IMG/VR virus record: IMGVR_UViG_2879731240_000003
Reading direction: 5' to 3' (one strand)
Length of the DNA: 29,012 nucleotides
From: a virus
Lineage: Duplodnaviria > Heunggongvirae > Uroviricota > Caudoviricetes
The translations under genes were made by a program, and so were the position numbers. Positions 7,666 to 9,196 of this stretch are shown piece by piece. Under the pieces are notes generated by a model, which was not told the origin of the DNA, made no database searches, and saw nothing but the letters and a program-made list of their open reading frames with translations. Position 1 is the first letter of the stretch, and each line of letters starts with the position of its first letter.

Positions 7666-8024
7666 TGCGCCATGAGTTTATTTTACCTTATCCGCCGACG
7701 GTGAATACTTACTGGCGACGTCGTGGCAGCACATATTTTGTATCAAAAGCCGGTGAGCGTTATCGCCGGGATGTGGCGCTTATTGTCCGTCAGCAGCGAC
7801 TGAAATTAAGCCTGTCCGGAAGACTGGCGATAAAGATTATTGCAGAGCCACCGGATAAGCGGCGTCGTGACCTGGACAATATCCTGAAAGCACCACTGGA
7901 TGCACTGACACATGCGGGGTTGCTTATCGACGACGAGCAGTTTGATGAAACCAATATTGTGCGCGGACTGCCTGTTCCTGGTGGTCGGTTGGGGATAAAA
8001 ATCACAGAGCTGGAGTGTGCATGA
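7665..8024 (+). CDS. rusA: Holliday junction resolvase RusA (lambdoid nin-region endonuclease)
   Basis: 119 aa; LPYPPTVNTYWRRRG..KRRRDLDNILKAPLDALTHAGLLIDDEQ..GGRLGIKITEL matches the RusA family pattern. Confidence 0.9.
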   Translation: MRHEFILPYPPTVNTYWRRRGSTYFVSKAGERYRRDVALIVRQQRLKLSLSGRLAIKIIAEPPDKRRRDLDNILKAPLDALTHAGLLIDDEQFDETNIVRGLPVPGGRLGIKITELECA

Positions 8025-8710
8025 ATAACCAGTATTTACAGTTTGTTCGTGAGCAGCTCATTATCGCCACCGCTGATTTGAGTGGGGCGACAAAAGGTCA
8101 GCTTGAAGCCTGGCAGGAGAATGCCATGTTCGATACAGGGCGTTACAGGCGTAAAAAAATCCGGTACCGCGATGAGGTGACCGGAAAAATGATAACGCGG
8201 GATAATCCACCAATCCCGGGAAAACAATCACTGGCGAAGGGGGCGTCAATTCCTCTGGTCAGTCAGGTTGCGTTTTCGACATCATCGTGGCGGCGGGCTG
8301 TTCTGTCTCTTGAAGAGCACTATAAAGCCTGGTTGTTGTGGTGTTACAGCGGAAGTATTTGCTGGGAGTATCAGATCACCATAACCCACTGGGCGTGGGA
8401 AGAGTTTAAGGCTCATTCTGGCACTAGGAAAATTGCAGAGAAAACACAGGAACGCCTGAAAAAATTAATCTGGCTGGCGGCGCAGGCGGTAAAAGCAGAA
8501 CTTTTTGGTGGGGAAGGTTATGAATATCAGGAGCTGGCATTACTGGCGGGAGTAACAACCAAAAACTGGTCCAAAACATTTACTGGTCACTGGGTTGTAA
8601 TGAAACACATTTTTCACCGACTGGATAGTGAGGCTTTATTGTTTGTGATGAGAACACGTTCAGAACAAAAAGCGGCATTTTCAAAGCAAAGTATTGCAAA
8701 AGTAGATTAA
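8021..8710 (+). CDS. Hypothetical protein in the position of the late-gene antiterminator Q (assignment positional only)
   Basis: 229 aa from ATG 8021 (overlaps rusA stop, ATGA); sits between rusA and a terminator-like hairpin plus tRNA cluster, as Q does in lambdoid phages. I do not recognise the sequence itself. Confidence 0.35.
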   Translation: MNNQYLQFVREQLIIATADLSGATKGQLEAWQENAMFDTGRYRRKKIRYRDEVTGKMITRDNPPIPGKQSLAKGASIPLVSQVAFSTSSWRRAVLSLEEHYKAWLLWCYSGSICWEYQITITHWAWEEFKAHSGTRKIAEKTQERLKKLIWLAAQAVKAELFGGEGYEYQELALLAGVTTKNWSKTFTGHWVVMKHIFHRLDSEALLFVMRTRSEQKAAFSKQSIAKVD

Positions 8711-8776
8711 AAGGCATATATCTCATGCAAATCTGATACTTTGCCGATTTTGTACGCGATGGTAAAGTAAGCAAAA

Positions 8777-8798
8777 CCCGCCGCCGAGCGGTTTTTTT
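8777..8798 (+). terminator. Candidate intrinsic terminator downstream of the Q-position gene (tR'-like position)
   Basis: Short GC hairpin CCGCCGCCGAGCGG followed by T7 (..GCGGTTTTTTTAT). The stem is short, so this is tentative. Confidence 0.4.
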
Positions 8799-8886
8799 AT
8801 GCCTGAAAAATGGCACAGGACGTTAAACGTGCTGGTGGTCAGATGAGTTTGCAGATGTGATGACATATGGTTATTATTCTGCCTCC

Positions 8887-8962
8887 GGCCCTTTAGCTCA
8901 GTGGTGAGAGCGAGCGACTCATAATCGCCAGGTCGCTGGTTCAAGTCCAGCAAGGGCCACCA
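8887..8962 (+). tRNA. tRNA-Ile2 (anticodon CAU, lysidine type; ileX/ileZ-like)
   Basis: GGCCCTTTAGCTCAGTGG..GACTCATAATCGC..GGTTCAAGTCCAG..AAGGGCCACCA; cloverleaf folds by eye; close to my memory of E. coli ileX. Confidence 0.85.
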
Positions 8963-8963
8963 A

Positions 8964-9040
8964 CCACCACTAGCTCATCCGGATAGAGCATCAACCTTCT
9001 AAGTTGACGGTCCGAGGTTCGAGTCCTCGGTGGTGGGCCA
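8964..9040 (+). tRNA. tRNA-Arg (anticodon UCU)
   Basis: Acceptor CCACCAC/GTGGTGG, D-arm GCTC..GAGC, anticodon loop CTTCTAA, T-arm CGAGGTTCGAGTCCTCG, 3' CCA. The C1-G72 first pair is unusual. Confidence 0.75.
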
Positions 9041-9042
9041 GC

Positions 9043-9118
9043 GCCGACTTAGCTCAGCAGGCAGAGCAACTGACTTGTAATCAGTAGGTCACCAGTTCGA
9101 TTCCGGTAGTCGGCACCA
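9043..9118 (+). tRNA. tRNA-Thr (anticodon UGU; thrU-like)
   Basis: GCCGACTTAGCTCAG..ACTGACTTGTAATCAGT..GTTCGATTCC..AGTCGGCACCA. Confidence 0.8.
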
Positions 9119-9121
9119 TAT

Positions 9122-9196
9122 GCGGGCATCGTATAATGGCTATTACCTCAGCCTTCCAAGCTGATGATGCGGGTTCGATTCCCGCTGCCCGCTCCA
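9122..9196 (+). tRNA. tRNA-Gly (anticodon UCC; glyT-like)
   Basis: GCGGGCATCGTATAATGGCTATTACCTCAGCCTTCCAAGCTGATGATGCGGGTTCGATTCCCGCTGCCCGCTCCA; appears essentially identical to my memory of E. coli glyT. Confidence 0.85.

Follow-up and report, generated by a model that had tools for sequence, protein, structure and literature searches.

That phages carry tRNA genes matching their own codon demand, and that tRNA genes lie next to Q and stx, is a long-established idea. Among the closest known counterparts of the locus reported here is the ileZ-argN-argO cluster of Stx phages (for example, Stx2a_F349, AP012530), which sits after Q and its terminator and before the lysis genes. Apart from one report of Ile-Arg-Arg versus pseudo-tRNA variants adjoining stx2i (PMC13641118), our search found no usable literature on ileZ/argN/argO or on the exact four-tRNA cluster. 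A phage tRNA cluster of this kind is already well known, with its genes annotated in hundreds of public genomes, and our contribution is confirmation and detail rather than discovery.

We analyzed a stretch of 29,012 nucleotides (referred to throughout as the window) that contains a defective lambda-like (lambdoid) prophage with the Shigella effector gene ipaH as cargo. In the reading that we prefer, with a probability of roughly 0.7, its four tRNA genes form a lambdoid-prophage operon in the accessory slot that follows Q and precedes the lysis genes, a slot that in Stx phages holds ileZ-argN-argO and stx, and raise the supply of minor tRNAs for codons that are over-used.

The cargo gene ipaH (26413 to 28164, minus strand) encodes a T3SS E3 ubiquitin-ligase effector, with Pfam NEL and LRR_TTSS matches and an NCBIfam IpaH_Shig score of 564.8 bits (cut-off 550). 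The lysis and head genes are gone from the prophage, into which IS600-like and ISEc20-like elements have inserted; because it is defective in this way, any benefit of the tRNAs to the phage itself is moot here. The ISEc20-like element, an IS110-family insertion sequence (9871 to 11321, minus strand; transposase at 9896-11092, matching PF01548 and PF02371), is 99.3% identical to ISEc20 of PPompW and replaces about 10 kb, from the holin through the major capsid gene, with homology to the intact prophage L134 resuming at FI. The tRNAs are separated from the place where the holin gene used to begin by a conserved stretch with no annotated gene (9197 to 9870, plus strand), 99.6% identical to L134 right up to 9870. 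It holds two terminator-like hairpins (9455-9474 and 9810-9836); its two longest open reading frames gave no NCBIfam matches and the stretch no Rfam matches, and no CDS is annotated in its counterpart in either L134 or the related locus L001. At least 80% of the tRNA cluster is present in 604 of 5,426 complete E. coli genomes (about 11%); it is common in the species and therefore not special to ipaH prophages.

Four tRNA genes and their host counterparts

ARAGORN calls four tRNA genes on the plus strand, between 8887 and 9196. Their anticodons (CAU, UCU, UGU and UCC) are those that the earlier note had read from the sequence, and are the same in Rfam, where the RF00005 scores of the four genes in order (71.2, 60.5, 69.8 and 64.9 bits) lie well above the gathering score of 29. 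The genes are separated by spacers of 1 to 3 nt (A, GC and TAT) and all encode CCA; each anticodon loop (CUCAUAA, CUUCUAA, CUUGUAA and CUUCCAA) has 7 nt with U33.

The first gene (8887 to 8962, plus strand) is a tRNA-Ile2 of the ileX/ileY/ileZ type, identical at 75 of 76 positions to Stx-phage ileZ, at 71 of 76 to K-12 ileY and at 69 of 76 to ileX. Its acceptor arms (GGCCCUU/AAGGGCC) keep C4-G69 and C5-G68, pairs that serve as determinants used by TilS, and near-identical copies are annotated as tRNA-Ile by PGAP, all in agreement with its prior assignment as an Ile2 and setting it apart from tRNA-Met. The second gene (8964 to 9040, plus strand) is a tRNA-Arg with anticodon UCU on an argN-type scaffold. 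The C1-G72 acceptor pair that had been singled out as unusual is real (acceptor arms CCACCAC/GTGGTGG) and is found in argN too; the discriminator is G73, and the cloverleaf is fully paired with zero non-canonical pairs. The gene retains A20, C35 and U36, which are ArgRS identity elements, and its anticodon loop is the same as that of host argU, to which it is otherwise unlike outside the conserved core.

The third and fourth genes were thought to be host-derived, and alignment bears this out. The tRNA-Thr (anticodon UGU; 9043 to 9118, plus strand) matches host thrU at 74 of 76 positions, the two differences (U16C and U20C) both removing uridines from the D-loop, and its anticodon arm (ACUGA/CUUGUAA/UCAGU) is that of thrU. 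The tRNA-Gly (anticodon UCC; 9122 to 9196, plus strand) is identical to host glyT over all 75 positions. The Ile2 gene, besides these two, is likewise host-like.

In the host, the corresponding genes lie in the thrU-tyrU-glyT-thrT operon upstream of tufB. The window keeps the order of Thr then Gly but lacks tyrU, its 116-nt spacer and thrT, with the intervening spacer shrunk to TAT. It likewise has neither the promoter nor the flanks of the host operon, the flanks here being phage sequence, and the window thus contains no full copy of the host four-gene operon with host spacers and flanks. On sequence grounds the Thr-Gly module is a derived, trimmed copy of the host operon from which tyrU was cleanly lost. 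The thrU-TAT-glyT junction is common to eight independent phage loci, and the sharing of one junction by many lambdoid phages points to a single old capture event for the pair. In this respect the cluster illustrates neatly how a phage can take up host tRNA genes and trim them.

The Q gene, the hairpin and the operon promoter

Upstream of the cluster, the last nin-region gene before Q is rusA (Holliday-junction resolvase; 7665 to 8024, plus strand; Pfam PF05866, E = 1.9e-15), and the same rusA-Q order is found in PPompW, 689R5 and Santai. The gene that had been placed at the Q position (8021 to 8710, plus strand; 229 amino acids) does encode a late-gene antiterminator Q: it matches PF06323 with E = 9.4e-90, aligning over 217 of the 220 profile positions, and is located after the nin/rusA genes and before the late genes. 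PF06323 is the Q82 family (PMC9388147). A search for relatives of the protein with solved structures found none.

A candidate late promoter PR' (TTGCAA-17-TATATC; 8694 to 8722, plus strand) overlaps the Q stop codon, and the region 8690-8775 hardly varies among three relatives that share this Q type. The terminator-like hairpin reported in the earlier note is present as a tR'-like hairpin with a T7 tract (8773 to 8799, plus strand; terminator scan), but only in weak form, with a fold energy of -6.3 kcal/mol as compared with -20.7 kcal/mol for the homologous hairpin of PPompW and -18.2 kcal/mol for that of L001. The Q module meets the tRNA module inside this hairpin, the window being 98.9% identical from 8790 onward to L001, whose Q-position gene differs; we take the hairpin to be a weakened junction product. 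The predicted short PR'-tR' transcript coincides with a weak, sub-threshold isrK-like match at 8727-8798. An identity with IsrK or IsrJ (RF01394, RF01393) was rejected, since the window scores 17.4 bits where the thresholds are 50 and 37, and scores are also sub-threshold (22.7 to 24.9 bits) in relatives with intact terminators.

Downstream of the hairpin, a promoter scan matched a predicted sigma-70-type promoter (TTGCAG-17-TATTAT; 8849 to 8877, plus strand) that ends 9 nt before tRNA +1. Six divergent contexts share its hexamers without change, though the spacers and flanks differ. Among 25 clusters chosen solely by their Thr-Gly junction, 24 carry the motif, with at least six unrelated spacer sequences, a spacing that is always 16 to 17 nt and a distance of 8 to 10 nt to tRNA +1. 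Among 60 clusters chosen solely by their Ile2 gene, 50 carry it and ten do not (the search pattern for this sample matched only the 77-nt Ile2 variant of the L001 type, not the 76-nt allele of the window). The counterpart in L134 (TTGCTG-17-TATCAT) overlaps the end of a methylase gene. Because the promoter is conserved across unrelated contexts, the tRNA operon is probably independent of Q.

Codon use and alternative readings

Codon use was compared with a reference of 35 K-12 core genes only. In the phage genes and ipaH of the window, AGG, ACA, AGA and ATA rank first, second, fourth and fifth of 61 codons by enrichment. It had been proposed that AUA and AGA/AGG are enriched in ipaH relative to core genes, and the count upholds this and adds ACA: these codons are enriched sevenfold to ninefold in ipaH (odds ratios for ipaH alone: 7.8 for ATA, 9.0 for AGA plus AGG and 7.0 for ACA) and threefold to 5.5-fold in the phage genes. 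GGA is weakly enriched in phage genes (1.7-fold to 2.1-fold) and not significantly so in ipaH. Ranks 1, 2, 3, 5, 8 and 13 in L134 (62 CDS, 13,146 codons) go to the six cognate codons, which puts four of them in the top five (hypergeometric P = 1.4e-4). CGG, which the cluster does not serve, ranks third to fourth in enrichment. Enrichment of rare codons is general to horizontally acquired genes, and the match is thus expected under the codon-supply model and is no proof of benefit.

Under that model, the operon would be transcribed in the lysogen from its own promoter, with a start near 8884, and transcripts begun at PR' may also extend into it through the weakened tR'. RNase P would cut each 5' end of the predicted four-tRNA precursor, and 3' exonucleases would trim the trailers of 1 to 3 nt. 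TilS would convert C34 of the CAU tRNA to lysidine, by which AUA should be read, and the second tRNA would be charged with Arg. In this way the cell would gain more of four host tRNA species that are minor and of low copy (reading AUA, AGA/AGG, ACA and GGA/GGG), and phage genes would be translated more easily, as would genes acquired horizontally, ipaH among them. If expressed in the lysogen, the cluster provides extra gene copies for the minor Ile2, Arg-UCU, Thr-UGU and Gly-UCC tRNAs, which serve the codons that horizontally acquired genes over-use most. In Shigella or EIEC, ipaH and other AT-rich virulence genes could then be expressed at higher yield.

The same genes might instead be an inert remnant, hitch-hiking leftovers that give nothing to the cell and are intact merely through the youth of the element. 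This fits a decayed prophage that has lost everything from holin through capsid and taken up two kinds of insertion element. Copies in related genomes are essentially identical, leaving no signal of purifying selection, and because these genomes are near-clonal (0 to 2 mismatches among the six loci with an identical Q protein) retention is not readable as selection. Of about 12 differences between the window and L001, three lie in the tRNAs (310 of 1,080 nt), no fewer for their length than in the rest; one related strain has C1 changed to A in its tRNA-Arg; and position 2 is often decayed in the clusters of other phages, pseudo-tRNAs being described beside stx2i (PMC13641118). Set against this are four perfect cloverleaves with CCA ends and high model scores, an intact predicted promoter, and host processing and modification enzymes, for which any transcript of this kind is a substrate. 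Moreover, two of the four products match essential host tRNAs exactly or almost exactly and must function if transcribed, and we consider an inert cluster unlikely. We regard as highly improbable that the tRNAs are strictly late and Q-dependent, made only in lytic growth by PR' read-through of tR' with the promoter-like motif unused. The arrangement of Q, candidate PR', hairpin and U-tract ahead of the cluster is that of Stx phages, and relatives have strong terminators at the equivalent position, but the hairpin of the window is itself weak, and the conservation of hexamers, spacing and distance to tRNA +1 across unrelated flanks extends to loci with no preceding Q gene or terminator, such as L134, where the cluster follows the methylase gene.

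Several defense nucleases cleave tRNAs, among them PrrC and PARIS (tRNA-Lys), and colicin D cleaves tRNA-Arg. The cluster might accordingly replace host tRNAs destroyed by such nucleases during lytic growth, and a general model of counter-defense by tRNAs has been put forward (PMC10264068). P2 Old kills lambda-infected cells, its primary lethal target being the host tRNA-Thr(UGU), thrU, and lambdoid phage 21 has a tRNA-Thr(UGU) that rescues them (PMC12445682). The prophage in the window carries a gene of this target type, and glyT also has, from its sequence, a paired CNG motif (C28-A-G30 / C40-U-G42) and A37. Elsewhere, some phage copies of the thrU scaffold have TCAGT changed to TCATC or TCACC, altering the CNG motif and the 27-43 pair, and in many relatives position 2 is occupied by a UUU tRNA whose loop has an odd C33. 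The window resembles the phage 21 or T5-type resistant tRNA-Thr(UGU) in being a lambdoid prophage with a tRNA-Thr(UGU). However, Old resistance is reported to need two things together, a changed CNG motif and a shorter stem, and extra wild-type tRNA-ThrU protects little or not at all (PMC12445682). The Thr allele of the window has neither feature but a wild-type thrU arm (ACUGA-CUUGUAA-UCAGU), its Gly gene is glyT itself, a tRNA not among the Old substrates named in the main text of that paper, and its Arg anticodon loop is that of argU. An anti-Old or anti-nuclease role thus lacks support for these particular alleles, and we judge the nuclease explanation distinctly unlikely for the cluster as a whole.

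Related phage clusters

The same cluster is found downstream of three different genes, encoding a Q82-type Q, a DUF1133 protein and a DNA methyltransferase. Clusters of the form Ile2-'Lys'(UUU)-Thr-Gly (PhiR47_1, vB_EcoS-689R5 and the O157:H16 Santai prophage) share the four-gene architecture, spacers and promoter of the window, and two of them, 689R5 and Santai, also carry a Q gene of the same Q82 type. They differ at position 2, where they have a CCUUUAA loop (C33), U73 and a score of 44 bits, in contrast to the canonical Arg-UCU loop of the window and its 60.5 bits.

Across such clusters the C1-G72 scaffold occurs with UCG, with UCU (as in the window) or with the C33-UUU loop, and the captured thrU body occurs with UGU, UCU or UUU and with stem changes that match the two features reported for P2-Old resistance. 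The lambdoid tRNA slot may thus be an evolvable cassette in which the same tRNA bodies are re-purposed again and again by changes in the anticodon arm, recording both a nuclease arms race and codon supply; we offer this tentatively and consider it doubtful. The allele in the window would then be an unarmed ancestral state, and its D-loop changes, U16C and U20C, might alter how some nuclease or modification enzyme recognizes it.

The ileZ-argN-argO cluster of Stx phages had been proposed to share its slot with the tRNAs of the window, and comparison with AP012530 confirms the position. In both, an ileZ homologue comes first and the same conserved promoter motif lies upstream. The second tRNA of the window is a homologue of argN, with which it shares the C1-G72 scaffold; argN, however, has anticodon UCG and U73, whereas the window has UCU, G73 and a different anticodon stem. 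The argO gene (UCU) of Stx phages is absent, thrU-derived and glyT-derived genes stand in its place, and, unlike in Stx phages, no stx lies downstream. Because its second tRNA carries the anticodon UCU and argO is missing, the cluster in the window is a sister architecture to ileZ-argN-argO, not a copy of it.

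Four tRNA genes in a decayed prophage

In the 29-kb window ARAGORN called four tRNA genes and no more, each on the + strand: tRNA-Ile2 (CAT; 8887-8962), tRNA-Arg (TCT; 8964-9040), tRNA-Thr (TGT; 9043-9118) and tRNA-Gly (TCC; 9122-9196). They score 71.2, 60.5, 69.8 and 64.9 bits, respectively, on the Rfam tRNA model (threshold 29 bits), bearing out the CAU, UCU, UGU and UCC set proposed in an earlier note made from the sequence alone. The spacers are 1, 2 and 3 nt long (A, GC and TAT, in gene order), and all four genes encode the CCA end. The acceptor arms of the second tRNA are CCACCAC/GTGGTGG, with discriminator G73, and it therefore has the C1-G72 pair that the note had read; alignment of this gene to the Rfam model gave no non-canonical pairs. 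In an otherwise identical genome (L282) C1 is replaced by A (equivalent of window 8964), which breaks the pair. The gene placed at the Q position (ORF 8021-8710) does match Pfam PF06323 (E=9.4e-90), the Q82 family of late-gene antiterminators (PMC9388147), with rusA directly 5'; we found no solved structures for PF06323 members. The terminator-like hairpin is likewise present, with seven T's, at 8773-8799.

The window is a lambda-like prophage with FI, Z, U, V, G, tape measure, J, lom and tail fibre genes and, at its end, an ipaH effector gene on the minus strand. An intact relative, the ipaHd prophage of E. coli RMDEC332 (L134), carries the Ile-Arg-Thr-Gly cluster too, with holin, lysozyme, Rz, terminase, portal and capsid genes after it, and is 99.6% identical to the window between about 8886, at the first tRNA base, and 9870, shortly 5' of the holin start. 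An ISEc20-like IS110-family element lies at about 9871-11321, and beyond it the homology to L134 restarts at FI; the prophage has therefore lost about 10 kb, covering lysis and head genes, and is defective. Two further insertions break it: a group II intron (832-2445) and an IS600-like element (6305-7461). The exact Q protein and the order IS-rusA-Q-tRNA-IS110 occur in many complete genomes of 4.4-4.7 Mb, with 0-2 differences from the window over the 1,185-nt Q-to-IS interval, and the IS load and ipaH suggest a Shigella or EIEC origin.

The IS3-family element at 6305-7461 (minus strand; orfA 7159-7461, orfB 6305-7123; its L134 equivalent is annotated IS600) stands in place of the immunity and replication region found in L134. 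The intron comprises a reverse transcriptase/maturase ORF (832-2355) and a 64.9-bit Rfam Intron_gpII match (2359-2445); it adjoins a fragment of an IS3-family integrase-core ORF (832-2445 and 2508-2924, respectively) and may have inserted in an IS element. The ISEc20-like element has an identical G-run target, TCGGGGGG/TGCCCC, just 5' of the holin start in the window and in the O157 prophage PPompW (sites compared: window 9846-9880 and 11300-11345; L005 3717-5190); both prophages lack the lysis genes, and their deletions differ in extent. The 670 nt between the tRNAs and the former holin start (9197-9870) are 99% conserved in L134 and in L001, a locus with a different Q-position gene; they hold no annotated gene and no Rfam or NCBIfam match, and include two terminator-like hairpins (9455-9474 and 9810-9836).

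Probable promoter and predicted expression

The first tRNA is preceded, at a distance of 9 nt, by a TTGCAG-17-TATTAT motif (8849-8877). Its hexamers are invariant in six divergent contexts in which spacer and flanks vary, and TTGnnn-16/17-TAnnnT ends 8-10 nt 5' of the tRNA +1 in 24 of 25 Ile2-first clusters, a sample of loci chosen only by the Thr-Gly junction and containing at least six unrelated spacer sequences; when loci were selected by the Ile2 gene alone, the motif was present in 50/60. The L134 version, TTGCTG-17-TATCAT, overlaps the end of the methylase gene. This pattern of conservation argues for a selected promoter belonging to the tRNA module. Three different genes precede the cluster, for a Q82-type Q (window), a DUF1133 protein (L001) and a DNA methyltransferase (L134), and the cluster behaves as a mobile module. 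Strictly Q-dependent expression of the tRNA genes is weakened as an explanation both by the conserved promoter and by the existence of loci without a Q gene ahead of the cluster.

A candidate PR' (TTGCAA-17-TATATC) overlaps the Q stop codon, within a block (8690-8775) that is almost invariant among relatives of the same Q type. The hairpin folds at -6.3 kcal/mol; its positional counterparts in relatives are strong terminators (-20.7 and -18.2 kcal/mol). Homology of the window to the L001-type tRNA module starts at 8790, and the junction of the Q and tRNA modules therefore lies inside the hairpin, making it a weakened hybrid. The predicted short RNA from PR' to the terminator (8727-8798) gave weak full-length matches to prophage sRNA families, isrK in the window and relatives and isrJ in relatives only; at 17-25 bits these are far under the thresholds, and we rejected both identities.

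Drawing on established E. coli tRNA biology, we propose that the operon's own promoter probably drives its transcription in the lysogen, with additional transcription probably reaching the operon from PR' across the leaky hairpin. RNase P would likely cut the precursor at the four 5' ends, trailers of 1-3 nt would be trimmed, and the tRNAs would pass into host modification and charging pathways, enlarging the pools of Ile2, Arg-UCU, Thr-UGU and Gly-UCC, for which K-12 has two, one, one and one genes, respectively.

Codon use and alternative roles

Against 35 K-12 core genes (13,465 codons), the window phage genes are enriched in AUA (odds ratio 3.1), AGA+AGG (5.6), ACA (5.6) and GGA (1.8), and ipaH in AUA (7.8), AGA+AGG (9.0) and ACA (7.0); GGA in ipaH (1.5) is not significant against the same reference. 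The enrichment of AUA and AGA/AGG anticipated for the cargo genes is thus real and extends to ACA. Ranked by enrichment among 61 codons in the window phage and ipaH genes, AGG is 1, ACA 2, AGA 4, AUA 5, and GGA and GGG are 11 and 12. In L134 (62 CDS; 13,146 codons) ranks 1, 2, 3, 5, 8 and 13 go to the six cognate codons; by chance, four cognate codons among the top five would occur with a probability of 1.4e-4. CGG (rank 3-4) is not read by the cluster tRNAs, and cognate-codon enrichment, which is common to most horizontally acquired genes, does not by itself show benefit. That the tRNA genes are an inert remnant making no present contribution seems to us unlikely; this reading stands because the related genomes are clonal.

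A role in counter-defence was worth testing because, according to PMC12445682, the tRNA-cleaving nuclease P2 Old kills lambda-infected cells by cleaving tRNA-ThrU within its anticodon stem, at a CNG motif that is paired, and phage 21 tRNA-Thr(UGU) rescues them. The same paper also reports that extra wild-type tRNA-ThrU gives little or no protection and that resistance depends on two changes together, one in the CNG motif and a shortening of the stem. The window Thr anticodon arm is identical to that of thrU, and its Gly gene to glyT, and counter-defence is therefore not supported for the window alleles.

glyT (= window 9122-9196) itself has the paired CNG motif C28-A29-G30/C40-U41-G42 and A37, as PMC12445682 gives for P2-Old substrates; tRNA-Gly is not among the substrates named in its main text. 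About six or seven thrU-body copies elsewhere read TCATC or TCACC instead of TCAGT in the 3' strand of the anticodon stem; the change affects the CNG motif and the 27-43 pair, the two features that PMC12445682 ties to P2-Old resistance. Other copies of the captured body have the anticodon UUU or, in SerU-LTIIb, which also has G24A and A31G, UCU. Variant loci are L009 595-670, L230 3480-3555, L270 5501-5576 and several IMG/VR loci, such as L150. The position-2 scaffold with C1-G72 (window homologue 8964-9040) also varies in anticodon among lambdoid phages (UCG in argN, UCU in the window). In its widespread "UUU" form the loop is the non-canonical CCUUUAA (C33) and the tRNA-model score only 44 bits, and clearly decayed forms have odd loop sizes (variants in L004-L008 and IMG/VR loci, for example L015, L040-L042, L020 and L056).

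Origin and relation to known tRNA loci

At least 80% of the 321-nt cluster is present in 604 of 5,426 complete E. coli genomes, and the host thrU and glyT pieces in essentially all of them. IMG/VR contigs collected with three different patterns, samples that are therefore biased in different ways, contained 60 clusters of CAT-TCG-TCT (Stx type), 54 of TGT-TCC alone, 49 of CAT-TCT-TGT-TCC (window type) and 41 of CAT-TTT-TGT-TCC, along with rarer anticodon orders. The Thr-Gly-only clusters have a conserved long hairpin 5' (GGTTCYGAGGG ... CCCYYGARGAACC; not in the window) that stops 3 nt before tRNA-Thr; its arms keep their complementarity in variants with different arm and loop sequences.

Alignment upheld the derivation of the Thr and Gly genes from the host: Gly matches glyT at 75/75 positions, and Thr departs from thrU only by the D-loop changes U16C and U20C. 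The junction CCA-TAT-GCGGGC is found in all eight aligned phage copies (including phi467, SerU-LTIIb, 689R5, PhiR47_1 and Santai), several of which keep the unmodified thrU sequence, and we therefore infer a single old capture, since when, to judge from these sequences, the thrU-glyT module has spread among lambdoid phages. In one viral contig (L180, 4860-5252 and downstream) Ile2-Arg-Thr-Gly runs into the host spacer AGATGT, thrT and the tufB start, so that glyT links the phage and host tRNA loci; the link reflects either genuine recombination or an assembly join made over the identical 75-nt repeat. Kinship with Stx-phage tRNAs was also found: the CAU tRNA matches ileZ at 75/76 positions (K-12 ileY 71/76, ileX 69/76), keeps C4-G69 and C5-G68, and has near-identical copies named tRNA-Ile by PGAP, and the Arg tRNA is built on the argN scaffold.

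The earlier note was correct in observation and largely right in interpretation. Genes for tRNAs in the Q-to-lysis slot of lambdoid prophages are a long-known class, and the window-type cluster is frequent, with annotations of it already present in public genomes; the anticodon variation and Old-type stem variants of its relatives are of more interest than the window's own cluster. Compared with the host order thrU-8 nt-tyrU-116 nt-glyT-6 nt-thrT, upstream of tufB, the window prophage keeps copies of thrU and glyT, joined by TAT, and has lost tyrU and thrT. Outside the universal core the second tRNA has no kinship with host argU; its C1-G72 scaffold is that of Stx-phage argN, from which it differs in anticodon (UCU versus UCG), in the anticodon stem and at position 73 (G versus U).
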